Shown here one piece after another: positions 2,589-62,515 of a DNA stretch of 64,000 bases. Every line of letters begins with the position of its first letter. Position 1 is the stretch's first letter. A program made the position numbers and the translations under genes. The stretch is taken from positions 28,441 through 92,440 of the forward strand of contig JAIPJS010000007.1 of assembly GCA_021734025.1 (NCBI GenBank), in the 5' to 3' direction. This DNA is from Fidelibacterota bacterium. GTDB taxonomy: Bacteria > Fidelibacterota > JAANXI01. The notes under the pieces are model-generated. The model made no database searches. It saw only the letters and a program-made list of their open reading frames with translations, and was not told where the DNA came from.

Positions 2589-2953
2589 GTGTATTTCGTA
2601 CTGCGTATTGCGTAAAAGGCCTTAGTACAGCGTTTTAGAGGTATTATTGATAATATCATGAGTTTAGCGTTTTCAGCTCGTGGTCCGTGGTTAACCCTCT
2701 AATCGGCTTAACTATGGAGTAAAGGTCTTAACTATAACACTGTAACACTTTTCCAGCCTCCGGTTTCCGCACAACCTATTTACAATTCCCAGGTCGTTTG
2801 TAACCCATATCCGGTTTTTCTCTCTAATAAATAAAGCAAAGCAAATTGGTGTGGAAGTTGAATGACTCAATCGTATGGTGAATCCCATGGAAATGGTTAT
2901 ATTTATACCATAGATGAGATTGGGATAAAATATAACCAAATCGGGATACAGGG

Positions 2954-10034: not shown

Positions 10035-10057
10035 TTGATAGAATACGGATAAATAAT

Positions 10058-10579: not shown

Positions 10580-10596
10580 ATGAGGGTACTCTAAAC

Positions 10597-13045: not shown

Positions 13046-13357
13046 AAAACGGGTATAAGGGTATATGGTATAGGATTATGTCGATTCCTAATCCTAATCT
13101 TAATCATAATCTTACTCTTAATCAGAATTGTTTAAGAGGGAAAGGCAGTATGTAGAAGGGGAAACTTGTTTGTTGTTTGTAGTCGGTTGTTGGTTGTAGG
13201 AAAAAATAGCAGTGCTTTGAAAGGAAATTGAATGCTTATTAATGATTTGCCTCAAAACAACTAACAACTAACAAAAAGCGGCTGAAGCCGCGACTACCAA
13301 CACTAAAACTATAACAACCCTTGAGCACTTTGACACTAAGTAAAGGATGTAAGGCTC
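13046..13357. repeat. Mosaic intergenic repeat element, copy C, inserted between the permease and ATPase genes. Contains GGTATAAGG words, TAATCCTAATCTTAATCATAATCTTACTCTTA, GGTTGTTGGTTG words, CAACTAACAACTAACAA, hairpin gcggcTGAAgccgc + GACTACCAAC, and CTATAACAA words.
   Basis: Same module order as copies A and B. Confidence 0.55.
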
Positions 13358-14062
13358 ATGACCTCATCACAAACCGACAACGTCATCGTCACAGATGGCG
13401 TGGAGAAGACCTACGAAGATAACGGCGTGGCTGTTCACGCTGTACGGGGGATCGATCTGACTATAAAAAAGGGCGAATTCACCGCCATCGTCGGTCCATC
13501 CGGTTCCGGGAAGACCACTTTTTTGAATGTCGTCTCCGGTCTGGATACCGCTTCGAAGGGCAAAATCTGGCTGGACGGGAATCTGGTTTCAGAGATGAGC
13601 GGGAAAGAGCTCTCCGACTTCCGCCGGGATCACATCGGGTTTATCTTCCAGGCGTACAATCTGATTCCGGTCCTCTCTGTGGAGGAGAACGTCGAGTATA
13701 TCATGTTGCTTCAGGGCGTGCCCAAGGAGAAACGCCATCACCGGGTCCTGGATATCCTCGGCCAGGTCGGGCTGTCCGGCTTCGAAGATCGACTCCCCAC
13801 AAAACTCTCCGGTGGACAGCAACAGCGCGTGGCAGTAGCCCGGGCGATGGTGGCGCAGCCCTCCATGATTCTCGCTGACGAGCCGACCGCCAACCTGGAT
13901 AGCGAGACAGGCTCCGAACTGCTGGACATGATGCGTGACCTGAACGAACAGACCGGCATGACCTTCGTCTTTTCAACCCACGACGAACTCATTATGGAGC
14001 GGGCCCGGCGGCTGGTCAGGCTCAAGGATGGCCAGGTGGACAGTGATGAAGTCCGGAGTTAA
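13358..14062 (+). CDS. ABC transporter ATP-binding protein (MacB/LolD-like)
   Basis: Walker A GPSGSGKTT. Signature LSGGQQQRVAVARA. Walker B ILADEPT. Confidence 0.9.
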   Translation: MTSSQTDNVIVTDGVEKTYEDNGVAVHAVRGIDLTIKKGEFTAIVGPSGSGKTTFLNVVSGLDTASKGKIWLDGNLVSEMSGKELSDFRRDHIGFIFQAYNLIPVLSVEENVEYIMLLQGVPKEKRHHRVLDILGQVGLSGFEDRLPTKLSGGQQQRVAVARAMVAQPSMILADEPTANLDSETGSELLDMMRDLNEQTGMTFVFSTHDELIMERARRLVRLKDGQVDSDEVRS

Positions 14063-14066
14063 AACT

Positions 14067-15320
14067 ATGATGCGCAGACCGCTCCTTCTGCTGCTAACAA
14101 TTCTTTTCCCAGCGATGGGAGGAGCTGTCGATGGCCTGGAGTTCAGCGGATACTATAAAAATTTTTTCGTGATTTTCAATCCGCCTGAGTACTACAGTGC
14201 TCCACCAGGGGTTCCGGAGCAAAAAGTCCGGGGCATGGTGACCAACCGGGTACGGTTGAAATTGTCGTATCAGTTCACCGACGGTGTCGGATTTCATGGC
14301 GCGTACAATTTCGTCCCCCGGGTTCAGGATCCGGGACTCTTCAATCAGTCAATGTTACTCTCCTCTAACGTGAATCCGGAACAGTATCGCGCGTTCGATT
14401 TGAACCGGAAGGTCTATCCGCACCGGGGGCAATCGCAAAGCGTCGGCCTGTATCAGAACCTGGATCGGGTATTCGTGAGCGTCGCGCTGGAGAACGCCGA
14501 CGTCTACATCGGACGCCAGGCCATTGCCTGGGGCAGCGCACGGGTGATTAATCCCACCGATATTATTGCACCGTTTACCTACGAGGAATTAGACACCGAG
14601 GAACGCACTGGTGTGGATGCCATCCGGGTTCGGATTCCCATCGGGTTCATGGGAGAATTTGACTTCGGGTATGTTGCCGGCGAAGATTTTGCCTTCGACG
14701 AAAGTGCCCTGTTTGCCAGGACGAAATTTTATGCCATGGAGACTGATGTCTCTCTGCTCCTGCTGGAGTTTCAGGAACATCTCCTGCTCGGCACGGATTT
14801 CGCCAGATCGCTGGGCGATGCCGGTTTCTGGTTAGAAGCGGCGTATGTGCTGAACAGCCCTTTCGATGATCTCACCTTTCAGAATGTGGATAACTATTTT
14901 CGCGGTTCCATGGGATTGGATTACAGCTTTACCGGGAAATCCTACGGCTTTATCGAATACCATTACAGCGAAGCCGGTATTAACGCTGAGCAGAATTACC
15001 TGGATCTCTTCTCAACTCCTGCGTATCGGGATGGCGCAGTTTATCTCCTGGGGAAAAGTTATATAGCGCCGGGTTTCACCTATCAATACACACCACTTAT
15101 CTCACTAACGGGCCAGGCACTGTACAACACCGGTGATCGCTCTGTTTTTCTGGCACCATCTCTGGAATATAATATTTCACAGAATGTCTACCTCGGCGCC
15201 GGCGCCTTCTTTGGCCTTGGTCGCCGACCTGAAATTTCCACAGAACGCATACCTCTTCTCCGCTCCGAATTCGGCGCCTACCCGGATATGTATTATACGT
15301 CGTTTCGGGTGTATTTCTGA
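14067..15320 (+). CDS. Outer-membrane beta-barrel protein (likely OM component of the ABC exporter; C-terminal F)
   Basis: Signal peptide MMRRPLLLLLTILFPAMGGAVDG. Alternating amphipathic strands. Terminal ...FRVYF. Confidence 0.5.
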   Translation: MMRRPLLLLLTILFPAMGGAVDGLEFSGYYKNFFVIFNPPEYYSAPPGVPEQKVRGMVTNRVRLKLSYQFTDGVGFHGAYNFVPRVQDPGLFNQSMLLSSNVNPEQYRAFDLNRKVYPHRGQSQSVGLYQNLDRVFVSVALENADVYIGRQAIAWGSARVINPTDIIAPFTYEELDTEERTGVDAIRVRIPIGFMGEFDFGYVAGEDFAFDESALFARTKFYAMETDVSLLLLEFQEHLLLGTDFARSLGDAGFWLEAAYVLNSPFDDLTFQNVDNYFRGSMGLDYSFTGKSYGFIEYHYSEAGINAEQNYLDLFSTPAYRDGAVYLLGKSYIAPGFTYQYTPLISLTGQALYNTGDRSVFLAPSLEYNISQNVYLGAGAFFGLGRRPEISTERIPLLRSEFGAYPDMYYTSFRVYF

Positions 15321-15529
15321 CTTCAGTGCTAGAGTGTTCAAGTGTTTTGGTGTTCGAGTTATTTCTTGATCTTACCCGTAATTTTAACTCTGTGGTCATC
15401 CGTTGTTTCTGCGTTCACCGACTTGTCGGGGACTGCGTGCTATTTTGCCGTTTTCACCTTGCCATTTTCCCGGATTTTCCCTATTTCTGTTTCCTGAATT
15501 TTCCACGCATTTAACAACTGAGAGAGACT
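15321..15529. repeat. Intergenic word-repeat spacer: GTGCTAGA-GTGTTCAA-GTGTTTTG-GTGTTCGA array, conserved motif CTGCGTTCA...TGTCGGGGACTGCGTGCTATTTT, and ATTTTCC word array
   Basis: Shares the GTGTTNAA octamer family with 37633-37769. The 23-nt motif recurs at 25174-25196. Confidence 0.4.
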
Positions 15530-23170: not shown

Positions 23171-23550
23171 TGAAACCGGTAACGGGGTATAAGGTATAGG
23201 GGTATAAGGGTATAGAGAGTAGGGTTTTTCTTAATCTTCCCATAGGGATCCCTTTGGGATAATCATAATCTTACTCTTACTCGATTCTACCTTGAAAAGC
23301 TGAATGGAAATGGGAGAAAGGTGCAGGGAGAAGGGAGAACGGAACAGATTGAATATCCAATTTTCTAGTTCACAACACAATAGGAGAAAGTTGTTGGTAG
23401 TAACCGCTTCAGCGGTTTTTCGTTTTGAATGAAGAGCATAGAATGAAAACAACGAACAAAAGCGCGGCTAAACCAGTCGTGAGCTTGGTCGAACGAGCCG
23501 CGACTACCAACGATAATACCATAACTTAAACTCTATAACACCGGAGTAAC
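23171..23550. repeat. Mosaic intergenic repeat element, copy B (complete): GGTATAAGG array, TTAATCTT, palindrome cccataGGGATCCCtttggg, TACTCTTACTCGATTCTACCTTGAAAAGC, GGAGAAGGG words, hairpin aaccgcTTCAgcggtt, hairpin cgcggct...agccgcg + GACTACCAAC, TAACAC words
   Basis: Approximately 85% identical over about 150 nt to 1-150. Shares modules with 13046-13357. Confidence 0.6.
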
Positions 23551-24807: not shown

Positions 24808-25203
24808 AAGAATAGCACGCAGATACACGCTGAAAAAACGGATTATCACAGATAAAACTAAGTTTTCTGATAAGAATAAACCTGAACAGATGAAGTTGGT
24901 TTTGGCATTATTCTTTTTACTTGCAAATTCCCGGGGCGAGCGCCTGGAATTCCGGCAATCTCTATAGCGGGTTTGTGACAAAAAAAGTATGTACAACAGG
25001 ATATCCACCTGCAACAGCATATCCTGAACAGTCTGGTGTCAATAAATATGAGTAGCCCCGCCATTCATGGCGGGGAATGGAATGCCGTTTCTATTTGGGG
25101 GCTTCAGCCCCCAATGTTGCTTAGTGATCGCAGAATCACTCTGCGTTCATCCGTTTTTTCGCGAACTCCGGCCTGTCGGGGGCTGCGTGCTATTCTTTAG
25201 AGG

Positions 25204-36282: not shown

Positions 36283-36327
36283 CGGGTATTATTTACGCAG
36301 TACGTAATATGCAATACTCAATACGTG

Positions 36328-37632
36328 TCACACGTCCAGCAGCATCCTCGACGGAGCCTCGATGAGTTCCTTCACCCGCACCAGGAATTGCACGGAGTCC
36401 TTGCCGTCGATCAGGCGGTGATCATAGGACATCGCCACATACATCATCGGGCGGACAACCACTTCACCGTCGATGGCTACCGGACGATCTTCGATCTTAT
36501 GGAGGCCAAGGATGGCCGACTGCGGTGCGTTGATAATCGGTGTAGACATGAGTGATCCGAAGACGCCGCCGTTGGAAATGGTGAACGTACCGCCGCGCAT
36601 CTCTTCGATGTCCAATTTGTTGTTGCGCGCCCGATCCGCCAACTCGTTGACCTTCTGCTCAATCTGAGCAAACGAGAGTTTGTCTGCATTCCTTATGACC
36701 GGCACTACTAACCCACGATCAGTGGAGACGGCCATGGCGATGTCGGCGTATTTGTGGTAGACGATTTCGTTGCCGTCGATTTTGGCGTTCACCACCGGGA
36801 ACTCCTGCAGTGCCAGAGCGCACGCCCTGGTAAAAAACGACATAAAGCCGAGTCGCACGCCGTGTTTCTCCTCGAATTGCTCCTTGTGCTCGGCGCGCAC
36901 CTGTTTTACCGCCGACATGTCAACTTCATTGAAGGTCGTGAGCATGGCCGCGTCATTCTGGGCATTGACCAGGCGATCAGCGATAGTGCGGCGCAGCGTG
37001 GACATCCGCTTACGTTCCACTTCCCGCTCACCGGTGAACTGTTCAGGCCGGACAGCCTTTGATGCTGTTTCTTTGGCGGGCTTCGATTTCTTCTGAGTCT
37101 CTTTTTCCTCTGAAGGTTGTGCCTTTTCCGAATCTTTTACTGCGCGCTGTGCATCGGCCTTGGTAATTTTCCCGCCGATACCGGTACCCTTCACGCCGCT
37201 GGGATCGATCCCGGCCTCTTTCAGAACATTGGAGGCAACGGGTGAAACGCGGACTCCTTCAGAGGTCGGTTCTTCTGTCTCTTCCTCAGCTTCCTGTGGT
37301 TCCTCCTCAGGCTCTTTCGGTGATTCTTCTTCCGCCTCTTGAGGCTCCTCGGTTTTTTCTGGCTCAGGTTCTTCTTCGGCGGTGTCTTCGCCTTCTCCCT
37401 CCGTATCTATGACGGCGAGGACATCCCCGACTGAGACGGTGTCATCGGTCTGCGCCTTGATTTGGAGCGTACCCGCTTTATCCGAAGGGACCTCGAACGA
37501 GGCTTTGTCGGACTCGATCTCGCAGATCACATCGTCCACGTCTACATATTCGCCATCTTGCTTCAGCCACTCGGCTACTACGACTTCGCTGATGGATTCG
37601 CCAACTTCCGGTACCGTAATCTCGTGTTTCAT
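36328..37632 (-). CDS. sucB: Dihydrolipoyllysine-residue succinyltransferase (2-oxoglutarate dehydrogenase E2)
   Basis: Lipoyl domain ([14 protein letters not shown]). Acidic P/E-rich linker. Catalytic domain with DHRLIDG. Adjacent to sucA. Confidence 0.9.
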
Positions 37633-37769
37633 TCTTTACCAGTGTTTAAGTGTTGAAGTGTTAGAGTGTTCAAGTAGTTGCGTGTCATGTGCTCATAATT
37701 CTCATTCGATATTAAAGAGGTCCTGCATACTTTAACACCTGAACACTATAACACTCTAGCACTGTTTTA
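37633..37769. repeat. Inverted arrays of degenerate octamers between sucA and sucB: GTGTTTAA-GTGTTGAA-GTGTTAGA-GTGTTCAA ... TTAACAC-CTGAACAC-TATAACAC-TCTAGCAC
   Basis: The two arrays are reverse complements of each other around a ~60-nt unique core. Confidence 0.5.
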
Positions 37770-40559
37770 TTATGTTTTCTCCGCCACAACTTTCCCGTTG
37801 CCGTTCCCGGGGGCTTTCACCCCTTCGTTTTCGGTGTTGAACGCCCGGTTGATGATGCTCTCCTGTTCCTTTGCATGCTGCTTGTGAAATCCTGTGGCAG
37901 GGGAGGCGCTGTTCCGCCGGGCCACCAGGCCGAGCTCCACCAGATCAAACTTTCGACAAAGATAGGCCCACGCGCCCATATTTTCCGGCTCCTCCTGGAC
38001 CCAGATGTAGCGTTCGACATTCTTGTATTTGTCAAAGATTTTGGTGAGCTGCTTCTCCGGCAACGGATAGAGTTGCTCCATCCGGATTATTGCCACGTCG
38101 TTCCGGCTTTCTTCTTCCTGACGCTCCAGGAGATCGTAATAGACCTTACCCGAGCAGAGGAGCAGCGATTTTACTTCACTGGGATCGGCGAATTTGTCGT
38201 CGATGACTTCCTTGAAGCCGCCGGTTGTGAGGTCTTCCAATGGACTGATGCATTTCGGATGCCTCAGCAAACTTTTCGGGGTATACACAACAAGCGGAAT
38301 CCGGAAGGGATATGCCATATGTCGGCGGAGCATGTGGAACAGGTTCGCTGGCGTCGTGGGGTTAATTACCTGCCAATTGTTGTTCGCCGATAGTTCCAGG
38401 AAGCGCTCGATTCTCGCTGAAGAATGTTCGGGGCCCTGCCCCTCATATCCGTGGGGGAGATACAGTACCAAGCCGTTGGAGCGATTCCACTTGGCTTCCG
38501 AGGCGCTGATATATTGATCAACGATAATTTGTGCGCCGTTATAAAAGTCGCCGAACTGTGCCTCCCAGATAGTGAGCCCTTCAGGTGTGGCGCAGGCATA
38601 TCCGTATTCGAATCCCATAACGCCATACTCGTTGAGTGGCGAGTTATGAATCCGGAACGGCGCCTGGTCATCCGACAGGTTATTCAGCGGGACATAGCGT
38701 TCTTCGGCGTCCCGGCTCAACAATACGGCGTGACGATGTGAAAAGGTGCCACGCTCGGCATCCTGGCCGGTCAGCCGGATGGGGACATTTTCAGTTAACA
38801 ATGATGCATATGCCAATTGTTCAGCCAACGCCCAGTCGAGGGTTTTCTTCTCAGTCAGTCGTTCTTTTGCGGAGCCGTACAGTCGTTTAATTTTCCGGAA
38901 GAGATCCATGTCCTCCGGTACGGTAAAGATCTTTTCTCCCAGCGATAGAAGGGTAGACTCATCCACACCTGTCTCGGGGGAAGAAGTCAGTGACTTCTCC
39001 TGGGGACGCCGCTGATCTTCACAAGAGGAGAGTGCATCGTCCGTGAAGGGTGGACCAATCTGCTTGTCCTCTTTGGCCTCACTCAGATGCTCTTCCAGCA
39101 TCTGACGGAATTCCTCTTCCATCTCCTCGGCGATACCCTTCTCCACAGTACCGGCTTCCAGCAGCTTGTTGTTGTAGATTTCTCTGGGATCGGGATGCTG
39201 CTCTATGATTTCGTAGAGTTTCGGCTGGGTAAACCGGGGCTCGTCGGCTTCGTTGTGTCCGTATTTCCGGTAGCCCAGCAGATCGATAAATACATCCGTG
39301 TTGAACTTCTGGCGATATTCCATGGCCATCTGGATGGCGAACACTACGGCTTCGGCGTCATCGGCGTTCACGTGAAAGACCGGCGACAGTGTTACCTTAG
39401 CCACGTCCGTGCAATAGGTGCTGGAGCGGCCCTGGAGATAATTAGTGGTGAAGCCGACCTGGTTGTTAATTACCAGATGGATGGTGCCGCCAGTGCGGTA
39501 GCCGTCCAACAACGACATCTGGATGACTTCGTACACCACACCTTGTCCGGCGATGGCGGCGTCACCGTGAATGAGAATCGGGACTACTTTGTCGATATCA
39601 TCGTTAAACAGATTGTCAATCTTGGAGCGGGACATGCCTTCTACCACGGGATCAACGGATTCAAGGTGCGACGGATTCGGCGCCAGATTAATCCGGACTT
39701 CTTTGCCGGATTGCGTTGTGACATCGCTGGTATATCCCAGATGATATTTGACATCGCCCTCGAACACCGAATCCTGATAGGCTGCGCCTTCGAATTCGCT
39801 GAAGATCTCCTCGTACGATTTGTCCATGATATTAGCGAGCACGTTGAGCCGGCCGCGATGTGCCATTCCGAGGACAACCTCCTCCACGCCGAGTTCGGCG
39901 CCTTTTTCCAGCACCGCATCCAGCCCGGGAATCAGCGTTTCGCCACCGGACAGGGCAAATCGTTTTTGTCCCACATATTTGGTGTGGAGAAAGTTTTCGA
40001 AGACCACCGCCTGATTCAATTTGTGGAGAATCCGGCGTTTTTCTTCCGGTGCGAAGTCCGGCAGATTTCGGCTGGACTCCATCTTATCCTGGAGCCACTG
40101 GACTTTCTCCGGCTCCCGGATGAAGCGATACTCCGCGCCGATGGAACGGCAATAGGTGGTTTTGAGATGGTCGATGATTTCCCGGAGCGTGGCCGGGCCA
40201 ATGCCAATTTCGTGGCCGGCCTGAAAGGTGGTATCCAGATCCTCTTCGGTGAGGCCGAAATTTTCGATATCCAGGGTCGGGGAGTATTTCCGCCGCTCCC
40301 GGACCGGATTGGTCTTGGTGAACAGATGGCCCCGTCGACGGTAGCCGCTGATCAGGTTGAGCACCAGGCGTTCTTTTTCCGCCGCTTCCGGTATGTCGAG
40401 CTGCGTTTCGCCGCTCTGCTGGGCGAATTCATATCCGGCAAAGAAGTCCCGCCACTCCTCCCTGACCGAGTCGGGATCTTCCCGGTAATCGTCATAGAGC
40501 CCTTCGATATAGTCGGGATGGGCGTTATGCAAAAATGAAAAATCTTCTATATCACTCAT
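37770..40559 (-). CDS. sucA: 2-oxoglutarate dehydrogenase E1 component
   Basis: 929 aa. Signature LGYRKYGHNEADEP plus a TPP-binding region. Confidence 0.9.
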   Translation of the reverse strand: MSDIEDFSFLHNAHPDYIEGLYDDYREDPDSVREEWRDFFAGYEFAQQSGETQLDIPEAAEKERLVLNLISGYRRRGHLFTKTNPVRERRKYSPTLDIENFGLTEEDLDTTFQAGHEIGIGPATLREIIDHLKTTYCRSIGAEYRFIREPEKVQWLQDKMESSRNLPDFAPEEKRRILHKLNQAVVFENFLHTKYVGQKRFALSGGETLIPGLDAVLEKGAELGVEEVVLGMAHRGRLNVLANIMDKSYEEIFSEFEGAAYQDSVFEGDVKYHLGYTSDVTTQSGKEVRINLAPNPSHLESVDPVVEGMSRSKIDNLFNDDIDKVVPILIHGDAAIAGQGVVYEVIQMSLLDGYRTGGTIHLVINNQVGFTTNYLQGRSSTYCTDVAKVTLSPVFHVNADDAEAVVFAIQMAMEYRQKFNTDVFIDLLGYRKYGHNEADEPRFTQPKLYEIIEQHPDPREIYNNKLLEAGTVEKGIAEEMEEEFRQMLEEHLSEAKEDKQIGPPFTDDALSSCEDQRRPQEKSLTSSPETGVDESTLLSLGEKIFTVPEDMDLFRKIKRLYGSAKERLTEKKTLDWALAEQLAYASLLTENVPIRLTGQDAERGTFSHRHAVLLSRDAEERYVPLNNLSDDQAPFRIHNSPLNEYGVMGFEYGYACATPEGLTIWEAQFGDFYNGAQIIVDQYISASEAKWNRSNGLVLYLPHGYEGQGPEHSSARIERFLELSANNNWQVINPTTPANLFHMLRRHMAYPFRIPLVVYTPKSLLRHPKCISPLEDLTTGGFKEVIDDKFADPSEVKSLLLCSGKVYYDLLERQEEESRNDVAIIRMEQLYPLPEKQLTKIFDKYKNVERYIWVQEEPENMGAWAYLCRKFDLVELGLVARRNSASPATGFHKQHAKEQESIINRAFNTENEGVKAPGNGNGKVVAEKT

Positions 40560-47418: not shown

Positions 47419-47633
47419 AAAATGAGATATGAGGTATAGGGTATAAGGAGTAAAATGATTGGAGACCGGAGCCGGAAACCGGAGGCAGGAAACTTGATAC
47501 TTGAAACTGGTAACTTAGGAACAGAGGACACAGGCCACTCGACATTTGACGACTTTTACCTAAACACTTGAACACATGAACACTTTAATACTAAAGTATT
47601 TGAAAAAATTGAGAGACGGACGGAACAACTGAT
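47419..47633. repeat. Mosaic word-repeat spacer between gltB and gltD (GAGGTATAGGGTATAAGGAG; AAACACTTGAACACATGAACACTTTAATAC)
   Basis: Same word families as the other mosaic elements. Confidence 0.45.
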
Positions 47634-51535: not shown

Positions 51536-52699
51536 TTATCTGTCCCAGGAAGAGAAAAGTTGTTCCCATCTGGGGGCCATCCGGGTCCAGTCGAATTCTC
51601 CCGCAATATCTCTGAAGTGAATATTCCGGGTGCCCTCGAGCCTGGTAAGCGCAAATTTCAACTTGCGATATAAGTCACGATCAGAGGTGTACAGGTTTTG
51701 GCCTTGACGGGCTTCCGGTACGTATTCCGGATAGACGAGCCGCTTTGGAAACAGCGGATAGCACCGGCAGTAAAGTGCCTCTAAAGCCGCAATGCCGAAA
51801 AATTCATGCTGTGCAGTACTAAGAACAATATCGGCGTGATGGAGCAGTTCGGCGTACCGTGCCCATTCTTCGGCGTATCCCCAGTGAAGGATATGGCCGG
51901 AGAGACGCTCCCTGGCGGTATCAAAAATTGCCGGATAATCTTCGAATCGTTCTCCGCAAACAATCAAATTAAACGGGATCTCGTCCTCAGCCAGCTGAAA
52001 GAGACTCCTGAAAAACAGCTCTGGATTTTTGTCGTGCTCCCACCGTTGATTCCAGAGAATGGTACCGGCATCGGATTCATTGGATGGAGGTGATACGGAA
52101 TCAAAGCGTTGCAGGTCAAGGCCGAGCGGCATCACAATCGATTTTGACCGGATTCGCTGGACGAGCTCCCGCGGTTTATAATCCACGAATCGCTGGTAGA
52201 ACTCCGGAATGGCTTCCAGGAAATCCCGGAGGTGAAATGCGGAATTGAAGTAAACCCGATCCGCCGCCATCGCCGACTGAATATTCATATGGGCAAAAGT
52301 GAGATCCCGCTCCCTCTTATCCCGGAACGGATAGGTTAGTTGGTTTTCATGGAAGTAAAGCAGCCAGGTCCATTGTGACGGAGAATCCATCAAACCCCGG
52401 AGCGCTGACAGATGAGTGAAATCAGAGGCGAAGATAATCCCCGGCTCCAGCTGCTCCTTCCGGATAACATCCGCGTAGTATTGCGCTGACCTGTGCATCC
52501 GCCATTTCCAGTGGTGAGGGGACATGGGAAGGATCCGGAAGGGCCAATCCAGGTGATTTTTCAACCCCTGGAGAAACTCCTTGTGGGAGCCACCGAAAAA
52601 CGGTTCGAGTCCATAGATGGGCCGGGACACTTTCTGCTCCTGAAATTTCGTTGCGAGTGAAATCTCTGGAACCTTACTATTTTCCGGAGTATTATTCAA
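51536..52699 (-). CDS. DUF3524 + glycosyltransferase family 1 protein (GTDC1 / tRNA-queuosine mannosyltransferase-like)
   Basis: N-terminal LEPFFGGSHKEFL resembles the GTDC1 EAFYGGSHKQL block. C-terminal GT1 fold. Confidence 0.55.
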   Translation of the reverse strand: MNNTPENSKVPEISLATKFQEQKVSRPIYGLEPFFGGSHKEFLQGLKNHLDWPFRILPMSPHHWKWRMHRSAQYYADVIRKEQLEPGIIFASDFTHLSALRGLMDSPSQWTWLLYFHENQLTYPFRDKRERDLTFAHMNIQSAMAADRVYFNSAFHLRDFLEAIPEFYQRFVDYKPRELVQRIRSKSIVMPLGLDLQRFDSVSPPSNESDAGTILWNQRWEHDKNPELFFRSLFQLAEDEIPFNLIVCGERFEDYPAIFDTARERLSGHILHWGYAEEWARYAELLHHADIVLSTAQHEFFGIAALEALYCRCYPLFPKRLVYPEYVPEARQGQNLYTSDRDLYRKLKFALTRLEGTRNIHFRDIAGEFDWTRMAPRWEQLFSSWDR

Positions 52700-53115
52700 A
52701 CCTTTCCTGCGGGAAGAGGGAATAGGGGTATAAGGGTATATGGTATGAGAACAGGAGTGTTAAAGTGTTACTTGTGTTATCGTTAAAAAGAACATGCATC
52801 GAGCGTACTCAATCCTATATCCAAAATGTATCGTCTGTTGGTGGTTCCCTCTTTAGAGGGGTGATCGGGAAAAACGAAAAATTTAGAATGAAAAAGGTGG
52901 TCGTTGGTTGTTGTGGGAAACTTTCCTTCCCGGGATTGCATCAGTATTATAAATATTAAGGATTCGCAATAAATCTCAACAACAAACAAAAGGGATTAAA
53001 AGGGAGATTAGGATTAAGAAGGTGTACAACGATAACACTGTAGCACTATAACACCTTAACACCCTAACACGGTCTTTTCGCATTACGTACTACTTACCAA
53101 TAAAACATTAAATAC
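52700..53115. repeat. Mosaic intergenic repeat region carrying modules in both orientations (GGGGTATAAGGGTATATGGTATGAG; GTGTTAAAGTGTTACTTGTGTTATCG; reverse complement of the TAATCTTA array; GATAACACTGTAGCACTATAACACCTTAACACCCTAACAC)
   Basis: Word arrays match copies A, B and C. Lies between divergent genes. Confidence 0.5.
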
Positions 53116-54470: not shown

Positions 54471-54908
54471 ATGAGCCAGGATTTCAAGCGTCGGACTATA
54501 GTAAACTGGTTGCTCGGAGGGGGAGTAATTGCGTGGCTGAGCGCAATATTTTTCCCGGTATTAAAATACCTCCAACCGCCGAGTATTCCGGAAGCGGTGG
54601 TTTCTTCGGTCAAGGCTGCAACTGTTAATGAACTAGCAAATAACTCCAGTAAAATATTCAAATTCGGAAATAAACCGGGCCTCTTGATCAAGACGCCTGC
54701 AGGAGAGTGGCGTGCTTTTACGGCCATCTGTACCCATTTGGATTGCATTGTCCAATATCGGGACGACCTGGAGCATATCTGGTGTGCCTGTCATAACGGC
54801 CATTACGATCTGCAGGGGCGTAATATCTCCGGACCGCCACCCAGACCGCTGGAAGAATACGACGTTAATATTCAGGGAAAAGACGTCTACGTATCGAAAA
54901 GGACGTAA
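54471..54908 (+). CDS. Rieske [2Fe-2S] protein of a bc/b6f-type complex
   Basis: CTHLDC and CACHNGHY boxes. N-terminal TM helix. Confidence 0.85.
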
Positions 54909-54916
54909 ATATATTA

Positions 54917-55980
54917 TGAAAGAGTCAATTCTAAGTTGGTTAAAAAACAGATATCCCGTTGATTCCGTCACGGAATTTGCCCAAAAGAAAAAGGTGCCTC
55001 TGTTTCAGGGGACTATCTGGTATTACTTCGGCGGAATCACCCTCTTTTTGTTCCTGATTCAGGTTGCGACCGGCATTTTACTCCTGTTTTACTACCGGAC
55101 CGGTGCCGACCAGGCGTATGAGAGTGTGAAGTTTTTAATGACAAAAGTCCATTTCGGCTGGTTGATCCGCTCTATTCACAGCTGGGCGGCGAATTTGATG
55201 GTGCTCTCTGCCTTTATCCATATGTTCAGCGTCTTTTTTACGCGGGCGTATCGTAAACCACGGGAACTGACCTGGATAACGGGGATGGTGTTATTCCTGC
55301 TGGCTATGGCATTTGGATTTAGTGGCTACCTGCTCCCATGGAATGAGTTAGCTTTTTTCGCGACTAAAGTCGGGACCGATATCGTCGGCGCTGTGCCGTT
55401 CGTAGGAGATTTTCTGCTCACCCTGTTACGCGGCGGGAGCGACGTGACCGGGGCTACGCTTTCACGCTTTTTCGGATTTCATGTAGCGCTGTTTCCGGGA
55501 ATTTTTACTCTCTTCCTAGTTATACATCTTGCGTTTGTCCAGGTCCAGGGTATGAGTAAGCCCATCGGTGCCAAAGAGGAAGAGCTGAAAACGATGCCGT
55601 TTTTTCCGAATTTTGTTTTGCGGGATCTTCTTATCTGGCTCATCGTGCTCAACGTACTGGCCATCCTGGCCGTCTTCTTTCCCTGGGAGCTCGGAGCAAA
55701 GGCTGATCCCTTCGTTCCAGCGCCAGCGGGCATCCGCCCGGAATGGTATTTTATGTTTATGTTCCAAACGCTCAAGATGTTGCCCGCACACATCGCTGGG
55801 CTCGAAGGAGAAACCGTTGGCGTCATGGCGTTTGCTATCGCAGGTATTTTTTGGATTTTGATTCCGTTTTTCGATCGCTCCTCCCAGCGGGGACATAAAT
55901 CGAAACTGTTAACGTACATAGGAATAATTGTCGTCATCTTCATTCTCGTCATGACAATTTTAGGATATACGCTCTCATGA
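54917..55980 (+). CDS. Cytochrome b (fused b6 / subunit IV type)
   Basis: Haem-ligand His pairs in polytopic helices. PEWY-like region [11 protein letters not shown]. Confidence 0.8.
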
Positions 55981-57233
55981 AACGAATACTCATTGTCACT
56001 GTATTGAGCCTGTTATTTGTATCAATCGCTTCCGGTCAACAGGAGGAAGAAATAAATACCTGCGCTGACTGTCATGAGATGATGGGGGCGCCCTACGATA
56101 GTATCGTCCATGCGCAATCCCAGGATATCCATGCCCAGAAGGATGTGACCTGTGCCGATTGTCATGGCGGGGATCCGACTACGATGGATTTTGAGGCAGC
56201 GAAGGCGCCGGAAACAAGATTTCGCGGGAAACCCGATCCCGCGGAAATTCCGGATCTTTGTGGATCGTGTCATGCTGATCCGGAATATATGCGCCAGTTT
56301 GATCCGGGATTGGCGGTCGACCAGCTCGCGAAATACTGGACGAGTCGTCACGGAGAGAAACTCCGGGAGGGGGATGCGAAAGTTGCTGAGTGCGCGAGCT
56401 GTCACGGTGCCCATGGTGTGCTGCCGGTAGACGATCCCCGCTCGCCGGTATATCCAACACGGGTCCCGGAAACATGCAACACCTGCCACGGCAATTCACA
56501 GTACATGGCTGAATACAATATTCCAACGGACCAGTACGAAGAATTCGCCGGGAGTGTGCACGGGCAAGCACTTCTCGAGAACAAGGATATCGGTGCGCCG
56601 GCATGTAATGACTGTCACGGAAATCACGGCGCTACTCCTCCGGGGATAGTTTCCATATCCCGGGTGTGCGGAACATGCCATATCAATAATATGGATCTGT
56701 TTCAGGAAAGTAAGCATGAGCCGATCTTCGACATGATGGATCTGCCTGAGTGCGAAACGTGCCATGGAAATCACGGGGTCCAACATCCCACCGATGCGAT
56801 GATTGGCACCGGGGAGGAATCTGTCTGCCTGAATTGTCACGGCGAAGGAGACAGCGGCTATAAAATGGCGGCAGCCATGTCTGAGTCTATCGACTCCCTG
56901 AAAATGGTCTACGATTCGGCTGAAGTCATGATTCAGCGAGCTGAAGAGAAAGATATGGGGGTCAGCGATCTGGAGTATTCCCTGCGGGAAGTTCGCCAGT
57001 CATTGATTCAAACCCGTACAATGATCCACAGTTTTGACGTATCCAGGGTTGAGGAGATAGAAAATGAAGGGCTGTCCGTGGGACAAGAAATTATCCGTTC
57101 AGCCAGGGAGCTTATTGATGAATTTTACTACCGACGAAAAGGGTTGGGGATTTTTACTCTGGTCATCACACTCGTTGTGATTGCACTTTATCTGAAGATA
57201 CGACATATGGAACAGCAAAAACCTTCCGATTAA
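55977..57233 (+). CDS. Multihaem c-type cytochrome (9 CxxCH) with C-terminal TM anchor
   Basis: Nine CxxCH motifs were counted. Signal peptide. C-terminal hydrophobic helix. Stop/start overlap with cytochrome b. Confidence 0.8.
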
Positions 57234-57326
57234 TTTTAAATAGACCCGGGATTCCGGGACTCGCATTGTTCTGCATTTCTAAAATGCCGGCTCAAGAGCC
57301 GAACCGGCAATAACAATGAAGGAAAC

Positions 57327-58976
57327 ATGGGCGACGACGCACCGGATTATCAGGATCTGGCTCGTGAACTCTCCACCCTCCGTACGATGGTGGAAAAGGT
57401 GCATGAGCGCGTCCGCCGGCTTGAACGAGCCGCAGGATTCAGGCCAGGGCAGATAACAACTCCTGAACAACCGAGATCAACGGAAGCGGAGGCTTTGGCC
57501 GGGACGCCTTCCGCCCCTAAAATTAGTCTTGAACAGCGTATCGGAGAATATTGGTTTGCCCAGGCCGGGATCGTAATCTTCATATTAGGACTTATTTTTC
57601 TGATCAGCTATACGTTTACCGAGTTCCGTCCATTTTGGCAAGCAGTCACAGGTTACGGGATCACGTTTTTGATCTTTGGCCTTTCCCGGCTGATGCAAAA
57701 GCGGTTCACCTTTTTGTCGGAGATCCTTTTTCCGGGCAGTTTGCTCTTATTGTACTATGTGACCCTGCGACTCCATTTTTTCCATGCGGAGCCAATTATA
57801 TCGAATAAGGCGATCGCCCTTACGCTCTTGTTAATCATTCTTGGCATCCAGCTCCGGATTACCTGGCAAAAGGATTCACAGTTATTAGCGTTTATGCCGG
57901 TACTTCTTGGCTTCTTAACGGCATTGTTGAGTGATACTCATCATTTTGCACTTATCCTGATTGTGGCAACAGCTGTTGTGGCAGCACTACTCTTTTCGAT
58001 CAAACATTGGCAGATATTTGGAATTGCTAGCATAGGTTTTACCTATGTATCATTCTTGATATATCTCTTAAATAACCCCATTCTCGGAAAAGAGATTCAA
58101 TTACTCCCCCGGCATGACTGGATGCTAGTGTACCTCGTGGCTACACTGATTGTTTTCACCTTGGTCAGTTTCCGTCCCCGGGTCAATGAGTATCTAACCC
58201 GTGTAACCCGGATTGCCCTTACTACCGTAAATTCCAGTGGATTTTATCTCGTGGCGCTGCTAGTGACCTTTCACTTTTTTCATCAGAATTTAGCGTTCTG
58301 GAATTTTGTTTTTGCTGGAGTGCTGTTTGCTATCGCCACAGCTCACTGGACAATCCGACAGAGTAAGTATTCGACCTCTTTCTATGCGAGCTTTAGTTAC
58401 ATTGCGTTAACTATCGGTATACTATCCGCAGCCGAAGCTCCCGATATTTTCCTGTATTTAGTATGGCAAAGTGCGATTGTTATCGGGACAGCGATTTGGT
58501 TCAAATCCGGTATAATCATCTGGGCGAATATGGGAATTTATTTGATTGTTCTCCTTGCCTATCTGTTCGTACCGGCGGAATCAGGGATGGTGAATGTCCA
58601 TTTTGCCATTGTTGCATTTTTCAGCGAACGCTTGCTGACTGTAGGAACGGTGCGGATTAAAAAGACCCCGGTTTTCTTCCATTACATATACGTGTTTACG
58701 GGATATGCTATGCTTGTTTACGGTTTAGCCCTCCTTTTACCGCCAGGTTACGTGAGTATGTTTTGGTTTATTGTGTCCGCCGGTATCATGGCCGTGGGAT
58801 ATGTATTGGATCTGCGATATTATAAGTGGATTGGTTTCAGCAGCATCGTTGCACCTGTATTCCGGATCTTTATTATTGATTTGGCCGCACTTGAGCCGAT
58901 TTATCGGGTTTTCTCCTTTGTGGCCATCGGAGCCGGCCTGATGGCTATCGCGATATTTTATACGCGAAAAGGGTGA
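57327..58976 (+). CDS. Polytopic integral membrane protein (DUF2339-like) with N-terminal cytoplasmic coiled coil
   Basis: About 14 hydrophobic helices following a charged N-terminus. No catalytic motif recognised. Confidence 0.45.
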   Translation: MGDDAPDYQDLARELSTLRTMVEKVHERVRRLERAAGFRPGQITTPEQPRSTEAEALAGTPSAPKISLEQRIGEYWFAQAGIVIFILGLIFLISYTFTEFRPFWQAVTGYGITFLIFGLSRLMQKRFTFLSEILFPGSLLLLYYVTLRLHFFHAEPIISNKAIALTLLLIILGIQLRITWQKDSQLLAFMPVLLGFLTALLSDTHHFALILIVATAVVAALLFSIKHWQIFGIASIGFTYVSFLIYLLNNPILGKEIQLLPRHDWMLVYLVATLIVFTLVSFRPRVNEYLTRVTRIALTTVNSSGFYLVALLVTFHFFHQNLAFWNFVFAGVLFAIATAHWTIRQSKYSTSFYASFSYIALTIGILSAAEAPDIFLYLVWQSAIVIGTAIWFKSGIIIWANMGIYLIVLLAYLFVPAESGMVNVHFAIVAFFSERLLTVGTVRIKKTPVFFHYIYVFTGYAMLVYGLALLLPPGYVSMFWFIVSAGIMAVGYVLDLRYYKWIGFSSIVAPVFRIFIIDLAALEPIYRVFSFVAIGAGLMAIAIFYTRKG

Positions 58977-59391
58977 CTTTCCCGGAAATGAGCATCAATC
59001 GGATTTCGTTGAAAAAATTTACTTTCCCTGTTGTGATGTCACGGATTTTCGTTGAATTAGTCAACGTAGGGGAAAGAAGTCCAATTATTGAGAAAAGTTT
59101 GAAACCGATTTCCTATTTGTAAAAAATAGTGTTGATATTTTCAACAATTCTGCCTAAAAAGATAAGAACCCACAGGGGTTCTGCGAATTCTGCCCTTGGC
59201 ACATTATTTGAAACATTATATTGCGTAATGAGAAGACAACAGTACAGTCAAATATTGGATTGTTGGCGGCAGACTTGCTGTTGCTCTCGAAGAATGCAAC
59301 CAATTTTTGCCGGAGATCGGTTCTGACCATTGATGTTTGGAATCCGATTTCTGGCAATTTTGTATCTTTTCAATTTGAAGGGGGATTTTTA

Positions 59392-61149
59392 ATGAAAAGG
59401 TTGCCTCTAATTTTAATTCTCGCACTCGGTTTTGTGGTTGCAGGTCTGGTCAGCTGTGAAAAAGAGAAGATCGTTGAAGCTGAACCGGCCATCAAAGTCA
59501 CCGAAGTTGTTGCGTCTGATACCATGGTTACCCAGGGTAAGACGGTAACGCTGACAGCAACACTCGAAACCGATGAAGAAGTCGACGCGGCATCCATTGA
59601 ACTGAAATGGTTTGCGGCGAACGGCGAATTCGTAGGACACGTCAGTGAAGGTGATACCGTGACCTGGAAAGCGCCGGCGGAAGATGGCGTTTATCGGGTG
59701 ACTGTCCACGCCACCGACGGAGAAAATATCGCCATCGGTATGCGGGATCTGGGTGTAAACGAATATGCACCTTCCGCAGATGTCTACTATGTCGGCGATG
59801 AAGCTTGTGGCCAGTGTCATGGCGATACGCACACGGATTGGGCTGAAACGGGCCATGCCGATGCGTGGGCCAGCCTGCAGAGCAGTGGGCATCCCGCACC
59901 GTATTGCGAACCGTGCCATACAGTTAATCAGGTGGATACCGACGGCAATTCCGGCTACGATGAAGTACCGACAGCGAAGTTCGTTGATGTGCAGTGTGAA
60001 AGCTGTCACGGACCCGGTAGTGACCACATTAGCGGTCCATCCGCTGATAACATCACAAGCCAGGAAGCAATTTTAGCTGAAGAAACCTGTGCGGTCTGTC
60101 ATGAAGGCGGGCACCATCCGTATCATGAACAGTGGACAGAATCGGCTCACAACTTTGATCCGGCTACCGCTGCTCATGGAGCTGGTGCACGTTCGTACTG
60201 CCAGCCGTGCCATAGCGGAACCGGTTTTGTCGAAGCGTTTGACGATGAATACACCGATCTGTATGCAAACGCCGAAAACAAGATGGGCATCACGTGTGGT
60301 GTTTGCCATGATTCACACAATAGCGACAATGTCGGACAGTTGAGAACGGTTGCGTCGTACGAATTCCTCGGCGGTGAAGTTGCCGATGAAGGCGGCGCAG
60401 GTCAGCTCTGTGTTCAGTGTCACCATGCACGTCATGATGGCGAAGAACAGATTCCGGCAGGCGACGAACACTTTGGGCCGCACGGTTCGACCCAGGGTGA
60501 TGTTGTTTACGGAACCACTGGTTATGAAGAAGTTGCACCTGATTTTCAGTTCGCCAGCACCGGTCACGGTCTGGTGGAAGACGCTTGTGCAGCATGTCAC
60601 GTCTACATGACCGAATATGATGAGACGACGGACTTCGCCAATGTGGGACATACATTTGAACCGCGTGTCGAATCCTGTAGCCAGTGTCACGGATCGGATA
60701 TCACCGATTCCTTCAGAGATATTCAGGCCAAGAACGATTTCGATAACGACAATTCCATCGAACCCGTTCAGGATGAAGTGGAAGGTCTGATCCATCTGCT
60801 GGCCGTCAAACTGGTGGAATATGACAACGCGAATAACGGCGGGAAATATCTTGACAATCCTGACCCGAACGCTGACGGTTTCCTGACCACGGTTATGGAT
60901 TCCATTAACAATACCTACACAGACAGTACCGAGTCTGGTGCCGTTGAACTTCGTAAAGGGGGTTTCAACCTCTTCTATGCGTATGACGACGGAAGCACGG
61001 GTATCCATAATCCGGCGTATGTCATTCAGTTGCTGCAGCAGAGTGTGCTGTATTACGATCCAAACGCATTTGATGATGGCGGATTGCTGGTTGGAGGAAA
61101 AGCCACCACTCTTGGTGCAGCCGACCGGATTACCACAGCGATGCAATAG
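59392..61149 (+). CDS. Multihaem c-type cytochrome lipoprotein (9 CxxCH)
   Basis: Lipoprotein signal ...GLVSC. Nine CxxCH motifs. Ribosome-binding site GAAGGGGGA. Confidence 0.8.
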   Translation: MKRLPLILILALGFVVAGLVSCEKEKIVEAEPAIKVTEVVASDTMVTQGKTVTLTATLETDEEVDAASIELKWFAANGEFVGHVSEGDTVTWKAPAEDGVYRVTVHATDGENIAIGMRDLGVNEYAPSADVYYVGDEACGQCHGDTHTDWAETGHADAWASLQSSGHPAPYCEPCHTVNQVDTDGNSGYDEVPTAKFVDVQCESCHGPGSDHISGPSADNITSQEAILAEETCAVCHEGGHHPYHEQWTESAHNFDPATAAHGAGARSYCQPCHSGTGFVEAFDDEYTDLYANAENKMGITCGVCHDSHNSDNVGQLRTVASYEFLGGEVADEGGAGQLCVQCHHARHDGEEQIPAGDEHFGPHGSTQGDVVYGTTGYEEVAPDFQFASTGHGLVEDACAACHVYMTEYDETTDFANVGHTFEPRVESCSQCHGSDITDSFRDIQAKNDFDNDNSIEPVQDEVEGLIHLLAVKLVEYDNANNGGKYLDNPDPNADGFLTTVMDSINNTYTDSTESGAVELRKGGFNLFYAYDDGSTGIHNPAYVIQLLQQSVLYYDPNAFDDGGLLVGGKATTLGAADRITTAMQ

Positions 61150-61290
61150 CGGCATACTGTAGTTTCTGAGTGAACGAGAAATAAGAATTTTAGGGGGGCA
61201 GCACTTTTAAGAGCCCCCCTAAAATTTAATTTGGATGACGAATAACAAATTCCATGGCAGGATAAGTAAACAGGAATCCGGGACTACGAT

Positions 61291-62499
61291 TTGAGGACAA
61301 TTATGAGAAAGAACGGACTTGTATTCGTGTTGGCGCTGCTGGTGTTGCTGCCTATAATCGGGCAGGCCCAATCCGGGTTTTCCGGTGCGTATATCGGAAA
61401 GTTTACAACCCAGGAACGGGGGGCCGATGACGGGGCAACAGAACAGCAAATGCGTCTGTATAATCGTATCCTGTTACAGTATGAACCATCAGAAAATTTT
61501 GCATTAAAAACAGCACTGAGACGCGCAGACTATTTTCAGGAAAGTATCGGGAATACGCATCTGTACTATGCGTATGCCGACTGGGCTGTCACCCAAAATA
61601 TTGGAGTGATGGTTGGCCGGCAATATCCCTATAACAAGATGATCCGGCGGGCAATTGATGGACTCAGCCTGGATTGGCAGGTGATGCCGCACTGGTCGAT
61701 TGAAGGCATTTGGGGACTGTACACTCCGTACGATCGGGCCGGTTTAATCGAGAACCCGGAAGATGAGCACGGATATTACATGGGACTACGGTACACCGGG
61801 AATGAGAACTCCACGCTTCGGGCGTCCGGATATCAGCAGGTGAGCCAGGGACGGATTTTAAATTTCGCTGGAATGGACGGACGCTATGCCGATCTCTGGG
61901 GAATAAATTTGTACGGATTTTTTAAATATAATATCACACAAAATTTTGTACAGGAGGCAGAGGGACAGCTCCGGCGTCAGTTCGGTGAAAATTTCTCGGT
62001 TTCCGCCGCATATAAATACCGGGATCCGAATTTCGACCTGCCGGAATGGTACTGGCAGTTTGCCGTCGAGCCTTATACGAATGTCAGGGCGGGATTTGAT
62101 TGGTTTCTGACTCGTACCGGAAGTCTTTCTCTGGAATATTTTACCCGGATGATGACGGATGAAACCATCCGGCGATACAAATTGGGATGGGTTGCCTCCG
62201 ACTGGACAGCCGGAGTAGTCTATGCGGCCAACGAGGATGGCACATCAGAAGAATGGAACGCTTACGGCAGCATCCAGCATCGCTTCGGAAAAAGTCTGTT
62301 AGTGGGCGCTGGCGTTGATTACTTTGATTATGTCTTTAACGAAACGTATGAAGAACCGCTCAATGCGTTCGGTTCCAATGTTTTTGCACGGTATCGGTTT
62401 GGGAATGCCTTAACAACGGGCCTGCGGCTGTATTATTTAACCAATCCGCAATATTCCAATGACGTCCGGCTGTTGGGTGAACTCAGTTACCAGTTCTAG
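61291..62499 (+). CDS. Outer-membrane beta-barrel protein (porin-like, terminal F) embedded in the cytochrome cluster
   Basis: Signal peptide. Aromatic-rich alternating strands. C-terminal ...LSYQF. Confidence 0.55.
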   Translation: MRTIMRKNGLVFVLALLVLLPIIGQAQSGFSGAYIGKFTTQERGADDGATEQQMRLYNRILLQYEPSENFALKTALRRADYFQESIGNTHLYYAYADWAVTQNIGVMVGRQYPYNKMIRRAIDGLSLDWQVMPHWSIEGIWGLYTPYDRAGLIENPEDEHGYYMGLRYTGNENSTLRASGYQQVSQGRILNFAGMDGRYADLWGINLYGFFKYNITQNFVQEAEGQLRRQFGENFSVSAAYKYRDPNFDLPEWYWQFAVEPYTNVRAGFDWFLTRTGSLSLEYFTRMMTDETIRRYKLGWVASDWTAGVVYAANEDGTSEEWNAYGSIQHRFGKSLLVGAGVDYFDYVFNETYEEPLNAFGSNVFARYRFGNALTTGLRLYYLTNPQYSNDVRLLGELSYQF

Positions 62500-62515
62500 G
62501 AAGGTGAAAGCGCAT

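Follow-up and report, generated by a model that had tools for sequence, protein, structure and literature searches.

The question raised by the sucA-sucB locus in the 64,000-nucleotide (nt) window analysed here (the whole stretch of contig JAIPJS010000007.1 given above, from a bacterium of the Candidatus Marinimicrobia lineage) is why two genes of one operon should be separated by two facing arrays of short tandem repeats, and whether these arrays belong to the control of sucAB or to something more widespread. The comparisons described below show that the arrays form an inverted pair with a significant hairpin fold, that this pair was added late to sucAB, and that it belongs to a family of octamer arrays which, in the genomes surveyed, keep a constant orientation with respect to start and stop codons. 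What the element does at sucB can be given more tentatively, as a translation-promoting leader that is masked by its own inverted partner.

The spacer (37633-37769, 137 nt, identical in the NCBI contig of the metagenome-assembled genome and in the Logan assembly) lies between two open reading frames (ORFs) on the minus strand, namely sucA (37770-40559, 929 amino acids, with 2-oxoglutarate dehydrogenase E1 domains) and sucB (36328-37632, 434 amino acids, with Biotin_lipoyl, E3_binding and 2-oxoacid_dh domains, and named E2 succinyltransferase by NCBI). Four GTGTTNNN units here face four inverted units across a core of 51 nt, which confirms the inverted octamer arrays around a unique core that an earlier, sequence-only reading of the stretch had described. 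On the plus strand, four perfect GTGTT cores with a period of 8 occupy positions 37642-37670, and on the minus strand positions 37734-37762 hold three GTGTT cores and one GTGCT variant with the same period; of the eight cores in both arms, taken in mRNA sense or as the complement, a single GUGCU thus deviates from GUGUU. By repeat search the arms extend over 37640-37676 and 37728-37764, being 37 nt each, 76% complementary and 51 nt apart.

In mRNA sense the spacer reads UAAUAA-AA, CAGUGCUAGAGUGUUAUAGUGUUCAGGUGUUAAAGUA, the 51-nt core, UACUUGAACACUCUAACACUUCAACACUUAAACACUG and GUAAAGA-AUG, and its octamers can be written as (GUGUUNNN)x4 just 3' of the sucA stop and (NNNAACAC)x4 ending 9 nt 5' of the sucB AUG, the tandem units in RNA notation being (AACACNNN)4 and (GUGUUNNN)4. 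The sucA frame closes with tandem in-frame stops directly before the element (UAAUAA, i.e. TAATAA at 37767-37772 of the window). The 5' arm, CAGUGCUAGAGUGUUAUAGUGUUCAGGUGUUAAAGUA (37728-37764, minus strand), carries one GUGCU and three GUGUU cores at period 8 and begins 5 nt past the sucA stop; its first 15 nt, CAGTGCTAGAGTGTT, are the same 15-mer that opens a post-stop array at 15325-15339. It is followed by the non-repetitive core of the loop region (37677-37727, minus strand), of which self-BLAST found no other copy in the 64-kb window, and by the 3' arm, UACUUGAACACUCUAACACUUCAACACUUAAACACUG (37640-37676, minus strand), with four AACAC cores. The sucB AUG lies 9 nt downstream of the final AACAC core and 7 nt downstream of the stem base, the latter distance being taken up by an unpaired GUAAAGA (37633-37639, minus strand) in which there is no Shine-Dalgarno-like motif.

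When folded, the RNA of the minus-strand spacer reaches -36.5 kcal/mol as compared to a shuffle mean of -24.1 (z = -3.71, with 0 of 200 shuffles being as stable), and the RNA of the opposite strand folds equally well. The long imperfect stem-loop that had been proposed for the sucAB transcript is therefore present in the RNA fold check, with the correction that pairing is confined to the cores: core helices of 6-7 bp follow one another along the stem and are broken by 2x2 internal loops because the 3-nt spacers (N3) between the cores of the two arms are not complementary. Known RNA families offered no counterpart, with 0 Rfam matches at gathering scores in the whole window and none for the spacer at permissive E-values; the best sub-threshold scores belonged to plant and animal miRNA precursors (18-25 bits versus thresholds of 70-100).

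With respect to the relatives, in none of the four examined does the sucA-sucB spacer hold an octamer array, and it measures only 20 nt in L204 (SucB identity 75%), 20 nt in L203 (74%, with the same neighbouring genes), 18 nt in L206 (69%) and 24 nt in L123 (65%). These lengths point to some 125 nt having been gained at sucAB in the Marinimicrobia lineage of the window. The suggestion that the hairpin is a built-in and conserved regulator of sucAB, for which absence from the spacers of close relatives had been named in advance as the telling counter-evidence, is thus not borne out; since the relatives do without it, the sucAB element is a lineage-acquired add-on and not the core of sucAB control, and the hairpin has to be regarded as a late addition and not as a conserved device for balancing E1 and E2. 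A hairpin of unrelated octamers is present in the sucA-sucB spacer of a distant relative (L196, positions 2372-2500, SucB identity 43%), where GCAAAG units on the 5' side face CTTTGC on the 3' side.

The further suggestion that the spacer holds another member of a dispersed family has stood up well. In the window, GTGTTNNNGTGTT occurs 24 times at up to one mismatch as compared to 2.3 occurrences expected and a maximum of 8 across 100 shuffles, and there are at least seven arrays besides the one at sucAB, all of them intergenic; being built of head-to-tail units of 8 nt, above chance and intergenic, the window arrays fall within the class of short tandem repeats, for which units of 5-11 nt in mostly intergenic positions are the mark. 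A scan for four perfect units in the genomes of 185,579 species, with one genome per species, recovered at least 120 loci where about one would be expected by chance according to our own estimate. Among the matches listed, 84 come from Bacteroidota and the allied phyla of the Fibrobacterota-Chlorobiota-Bacteroidota (FCB) group as counted by record titles, i.e., 72 from Bacteroidota (about 33 of them Saprospiraceae), six from Balneolota/Rhodothermota, five from Calditrichota and one from Ignavibacteria, the rest being scattered. The array family is common both in the genome of the window and across the FCB group, a superphylum to which Candidatus Marinimicrobia itself belongs and with which a type IX secretion system (T9SS) sorting domain in the window agrees.

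The arrays of this family have a direction. Considering arrays of 4-12 units with an inverted partner within 300 nt, 51 arms among the matches listed resolve into 35 unique pairs with gaps of 8-186 nt, and all 35 run from GTGTT to AACAC, the opposite order being found 0 times. The stability of the helix offers no explanation for this polarity because both orders would give the same helix. Whichever way the flanking genes are arranged, such pairs are found among the matches listed (++ 5, -- 5, +- 3, -+ 3).

A second regularity concerns the adjacent genes and was assessed for the 181 arrays in the listed loci. An ORF of 100 amino acids or more opens with its ATG no more than 20 nt downstream of 36 of these 181 arrays when they are read as AACAC and of 5 when they are read as GTGTT (p = 8e-7), and in turn the stop of an ORF of at least 100 codons lies no more than 20 nt upstream of 35 of the 181 in GTGTT reading and of 7 in AACAC reading (p = 1.5e-5). 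Lone arrays among the matches listed follow the same rules, with ratios of 27:6 near starts and 19:10 near stops (Fisher's exact test, p = 2e-4), and on viral contigs, where no inverted pairs or hairpins were found, the start-codon rule is kept by 10 arrays versus 1. The forward orientation near starts that marks the TAACTGA/STRR/LSSR class of repeats is therefore seen in genome and viral loci alike, and the sucAB element obeys both rules, its GU arm standing 5 nt past a stop and its last AACAC core 9 nt before an AUG. As no promoter could fit between an ATG and an array ending 0-20 nt ahead of it, such arrays must be part of the mRNA leader, and their fixed orientation at start and stop codons suggests that they act in the mRNA.

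A comparison of arrays with one another further indicates which part of the unit is under constraint. Between the two sucAB arms, 19 of 20 core positions are identical as compared to 4 of 12 N3 positions, the latter being the chance level (Fisher's exact test, p = 4e-4). At orthologous sites in other genomes the picture is similar, with 19/20 core and 2/9 N3 positions identical between the window and L208 in the gltB-gltD array, the flanks of which cannot be aligned, and with 15/15 and 3/6, respectively, between the window and L206 in the array upstream of an MBL-fold gene. The latter array is shorter in L211 and absent from L208, L209 and L210, and is thus found at three of six orthologous sites. 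With nearly identical cores and N3 at chance, the sucAB arms are not recent inverted copies of one another, and it is the 5-nt core itself that is kept.

Several observations on the family stand apart from these rules. At six loci in Saprospiraceae/Lewinellaceae (L039, L066, L112, L034, L013 and L070) the hairpins have, as judged by eye, a similar inner sequence of roughly GGGCGYTYCGCTCTTGGCA, which in L066 is itself palindromic, and this shared inner sequence suggests a dispersed element family in that clade. Many viral matches (L223, L224, L227, L229, L235, L236, L238, L245, L246 and others) are of the form (GTGTTCTG)n inside an ORF of about 311 amino acids; these contigs come from one metagenome (3300045988), and the coding repeat is unrelated to the leader arrays. 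Two further candidate rules were rejected, the first being circularisation of the mRNA through a 5' AACAC and a 3' GTGTT array flanking one gene, which fits only 2 of 50 genes, although the window operon 13358-15320 and the gene at 10132-10503 do resemble such a layout. The second was a conserved CAGTG terminus, which occurs in arrays of the window and of L208, L070 and L094 but in only 9 of 184 arrays as compared to 3% of internal spacers.

How, then, might the arrays act at sucB? Four AACAC cores lie at positions -9 to -42 of the gene, and the predicted fold pairs them with the GUGUU arm; the combination known from the GcvB type of control, i.e., ACA motifs before a start codon that are complementary to a G/U-rich RNA segment, is accordingly found here. 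The pairing segment of GcvB itself is reportedly G/U-rich. In Salmonella, ACA motifs or CA-rich elements before start codons are translational enhancers that are silenced by pairing with this small RNA (PMC3879156), and the ribosomes of Bacteroidia make no use of Shine-Dalgarno pairing, their initiation being adjusted through the structure of the mRNA and through A residues upstream of the start (PMC6847099, PMC7797042). In the window only about 18 of 43 genes have a Shine-Dalgarno-like motif, sucA and sucB being without one. Together with the G-poor and ACA-rich composition of the array, the Salmonella enhancers and Shine-Dalgarno-independent initiation lead us to read the sucB-proximal array as an initiation-promoting leader. 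The explanation which we tentatively favour, albeit with less than even confidence, is that the AACAC array provides a G-poor leader for sucB and that the GUGUU array masks it in the hairpin.

According to this explanation the AACAC array, with one ACA motif per unit and unable to fold alone, would aid ribosome initiation at sucB. The GU-rich array would be transcribed first and would then tie up the AACAC leader in an imperfect hairpin (about -36 kcal/mol), acting next to sucA as a cis antisense to the sucB leader. Initiation at sucB would depend on the opening of this hairpin, which could set the output of sucB relative to that of sucA with a loose coupling to sucA translation, and the stem-loop could in addition protect the sucA segment of the transcript from 3' exonucleases in a REP-like manner. 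A much bolder extension, which is rather unlikely to hold, is that FCB bacteria and some phages share a hitherto undescribed cis-code, with tandem AACAC octamers right before start codons as Shine-Dalgarno-free enhancers and complementary post-stop GUGUU arrays as silencers of these leaders. Such silencers may work in cis through intercistronic hairpins or in trans, in the form of small RNAs that stem from 3' untranslated regions (UTRs), and the GU-arm-first polarity could keep C-rich unpaired RNA from being exposed during transcription.

A number of points weigh against the masked-leader explanation. Any function of the element at sucAB is dispensable, given its absence from the spacers of 4 of 4 relatives, and in the organism of the window we infer the mechanism throughout. 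Marinimicrobia are not Bacteroidia, and Shine-Dalgarno motifs are partly used among them. In a thermodynamic model, opening the region from -20 to +12 of sucB costs 7.9 kcal/mol with the hairpin; a ribosome placed on the sucA stop lowers this cost to 6.4 kcal/mol, and shuffling of the 5' arm lowers it to 6.5 kcal/mol. By this estimate the hairpin adds only about 1.5 kcal/mol to the opening of the sucB start and masks the AACAC array far more than the AUG, so that an effect would come mainly from array masking and would tie sucB only weakly to the translation of sucA; the idea that a ribosome couples the two genes by melting the base of the stem was therefore dropped as the main claim and retained as a minor component. 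As far as the sequence tells, the stem itself is without sign of maintenance because the N3 spacers of one arm do not complement those of the other, and the survey had its core fixed as GTGTT, so that other cores fall outside it. Above all, at the edges of spacers the gene-relative rule and the GTGTT-first polarity are mathematically equivalent in every gene arrangement, and orientation alone therefore cannot separate an RNA function from a purifying filter or an intrinsic polarity of the element. In favour of a rule at the RNA level are the leader rule on viral contigs in the absence of hairpins, the tight distances of 0-20 nt and the conservation of the cores.

The main rival, which we regard as only somewhat less probable than the masked leader, takes the element for repeat DNA of a selfish or neutral kind that plays no part at sucAB, having arisen by an insertion resembling a miniature inverted-repeat transposable element (MITE) or by local tandem expansion in a short spacer. 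Its orientation would then be owed to a filter by which GUG/UUG-rich and pairing-prone arrays are purged from leaders, G-poor AACAC arrays being tolerated; however, such a leader filter leaves the bias of GTGTT arrays past stops (35 versus 7 among the matches listed) unexplained. In line with repeat DNA are the lack of the element from the 18-24-nt spacers of the four relatives, the patchy gain and loss seen at the MBL-fold array, the hairpins of other genomes, which are often perfect inverted repeats with the spacers included, the similar inner palindrome of several Saprospiraceae copies and the wealth of other short tandem-repeat families in the window. The terminal inverted repeats expected of a MITE are present in the form of the 37-nt arms, but further copies sharing the 51-nt core are missing from the 64 kb, and neither a transposase nor an insertion sequence was seen among the window's annotated proteins. 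On either side of the element stands a TAAA, with an offset of 1 nt, which could be a 4-nt target-site duplication but is weak evidence in its A-rich context, and the spacers of the relatives give no clean empty site. Difficult to reconcile with repeat DNA is also that, when the sucAB arms are compared with each other and when two orthologous sites are compared between genomes, cores were kept and N3 randomised, because neutral decay would strike cores and N3 equally.

A REP-like intra-operon hairpin, which would block 3' exonucleases or offer an RNase III site and thereby give the sucA and sucB segments different half-lives, is in our view an unlikely explanation. It is in line with a stable and statistically supported stem-loop just past the sucA stop that lacks a U-tract, and for the presence of family hairpins in all four arrangements of flanking genes, convergent ones included. 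REP/BIME elements between cistrons are known to work in this way, as in the malE-malF case of E. coli. However, lone arrays, which are unable to fold, follow the same orientation rules, and conservation of the cores rather than of the pairing is left unexplained.

Still less probable are double-stranded DNA sites for a nucleoid or regulatory protein, as proposed for the paired octanucleotides of Geobacter metallireducens, although the architecture agrees (tandem octamers in fours, with a partner site on the other strand at a varying distance, also between operon genes; PMC2700814) and the cores are conserved. Against such sites, the orientation is tied to start and stop codons that lie only 0-20 nt away, as would be expected of an element acting in the transcript, and a period of 8 bp would set successive sites on different faces of the helix. 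To our knowledge, there is moreover no candidate protein for the binding of octamer arrays. Finally, that the strong hairpin between both genes serves as an intrinsic terminator or attenuator, or that the core contains a promoter of sucB, is most improbable, as no U-tract follows the stem (GUAAAGAAUG being found there instead), a scan of the spacer minus strand revealed no terminator-like or promoter-like site, and the relatives' spacers of only 18-24 nt imply that sucA and sucB are co-transcribed by default.

Among the other family members in the window, those already listed in the sequence-only reading are real, but their positions were slightly off and are now placed at 15326-15354, 47563-47591, 52757-52780 and 53034-53070. 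The first of them (15325-15358 in full, plus strand) has GTGTT sense, starts 5 nt past the stop of the gene at 14028-15320 and opens with CAGTGCTAGAGTGTT. The array at 47563-47591 (plus strand) has AACAC sense and lies between gltB and gltD, 43 nt upstream of where the gltD-like gene starts, with an orthologous array in L208. The array at 52757-52780 (minus strand, three units) has AACAC sense for the minus-strand glycosyltransferase gene 51536-52699, and that at 53034-53070 (plus strand, five units, one of them with GCAC) has AACAC sense upstream of the MBL-fold hydrolase gene and is orthologous in L206 and L211. These two form a wide GTGTT-first pair with 52757-52780 as the left arm, but a single hairpin of both is unsupported by the fold (z = -1.55). 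Not listed before were an array at 272-300 (plus strand) in AACAC sense for the gene 415-1740, preceded by a GC hairpin and about 115 nt upstream of the start, an array at 2731-2749 (plus strand, two units at 2736-2748) in AACAC sense in the spacer upstream of an extracytoplasmic function (ECF) sigma factor gene, and a degenerate array near 13296-13340.

The window holds further repeats of other kinds. At 1-414, 13046-13357 and 23171-23550, and partly at 47419-47633 and 52700-53115, there are long intergenic composites of short tandem-repeat families in a fixed order, i.e., GGGTATAAG units, TAATCTTA units, a small hairpin, GGGAGAAAG units, TTGTTGG and then ACAACTA units, a GC hairpin, AACAC units and the next gene, each array being limited to two or three of the four bases; positions 1-138 and 23203-23360 are 79% identical over 158 nt. 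The GC-rich hairpins at 243-262, 13275-13292 and 23470-23520 are preceded on the plus strand by an A-tract but not followed by a T-tract and thus resemble intrinsic terminators for minus-strand transcription only, the flanking genes being both on the plus strand. A gene for a PDDEXK_3 protein (PD-(D/E)XK, 10132-10503, 123 amino acids) is flanked by inverted arrays with a period of about 10 nt at 10035-10131 and 10504-10596, with AACACCGA/CACTGAGA units upstream and the complement TCAGTGTT/TCGGTGT downstream, and the whole gene could lie within a long-range stem. A 58-nt repeat containing a small hairpin is found downstream of genes at 15387-15444 and 25138-25194 (83% identical), the former copy coming after the GTGTT array 15326-15354 in a layout like that of a small RNA derived from a 3' UTR. 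Heptamer arrays of CGTATTG/GTACTGC at 2589-2615 and 36290-36327 stand directly past the stops of the gene 1893-2588 and of sucB, respectively, and represent another GT-rich trailer family. The region 54712-63391 encodes cytochrome b and several multihaem cytochromes c (Cytochrome_C7, Paired_CXXCH, MtrC/MtrF-like), a cluster shared with L208 and L209.

The family bears on a question still being worked out, namely by what means Bacteroidota-lineage bacteria, which dispense with Shine-Dalgarno pairing, select their start sites and adjust their use. It constitutes a natural, repeated and easily counted module that stands 0-20 nt before starts in a single orientation, with a complementary partner past stops and with 5-nt cores that are kept across species amid drifting surroundings. 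Should they enhance or gate translation, the arrays would offer ready-made tuning parts and add a new case to regulation by tandem repeats; if they have no such role, the 35-to-0 polarity still needs explaining and could reveal a process that generates or filters repeats. As carriers are available in culture, among them Gracilimonas mengyeensis DSM 21985 (hairpin at L094 1544-1635), Ohtaekwangia kribbensis (L120 2682-2780) and Catalinimonas, the question is open to experiment.

In the literature we found no description of GTGTT/AACAC octamer arrays, of their strict polarity, of their adjacency to starts and stops or of their spread across the FCB group, but several known systems share some of these features. 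In architecture the closest are the paired octanucleotide sites of Geobacter metallireducens, which are multicopy, intergenic and uncharacterised in function and consist of four GTTGCTYN units each on opposite strands at variable distance, a heptamer class being found between the operon genes proB and proA; the authors interpreted the sites as DNA sites of an unidentified global regulator (IHF/HU) (PMC2700814; Aklujkar et al. 2009). The sucAB element likewise has about four octamers per site and opposite-strand pairing, but its core is GTGTT/GTGCT and not GTTGCTYN, and the phylum differs. In Geobacter, moreover, insertion sequences lie at a fixed distance, whereas there are none among the annotated proteins of the window, and no orientation rule for starts or stops was reported.

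With respect to position, the closest behaviour is that of the TAACTGA and cyanobacterial STRR heptamers, which are mostly intergenic, forward and immediately before start codons. TAACTGA direct repeats of uncharacterised function are known from marine Beggiatoaceae, cyanobacteria and some Bacteroidetes (MacGregor 2015, PMC4679880), and are thus, like the octamer family, phylogenetically scattered with Bacteroidetes included. However, their period is 7 and not 8, the whole unit is conserved and not merely a 5-nt core with a variable 3-nt spacer, and there is 1 inverted repeat in 170 sets whereas hairpin pairs are common here.

The REP/BIME/REPIN elements of proteobacteria resemble the sucAB element as dispersed intergenic palindromes that are often located within operons and form mRNA hairpins able to alter the stability of transcript segments. 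REP units are single palindromes of 20-40 nt with a conserved GTAG head which are mobilised by RAYT proteins. The arms described here, in contrast, are tandem octamers unable to fold alone and thus do not constitute REP units; no RAYT gene was seen in the window.

The closest match for how the element may work is finally provided by the ACA-motif enhancers and GcvB (PMC3879156), where a G-poor ACA sequence is likewise neutralised by complementary pairing. In that system the silencer is a small RNA acting in trans with Hfq and the enhancers are not tandem octamers, whereas at sucB the candidate silencing arm would lie in cis, within the same spacer as the leader that it masks.

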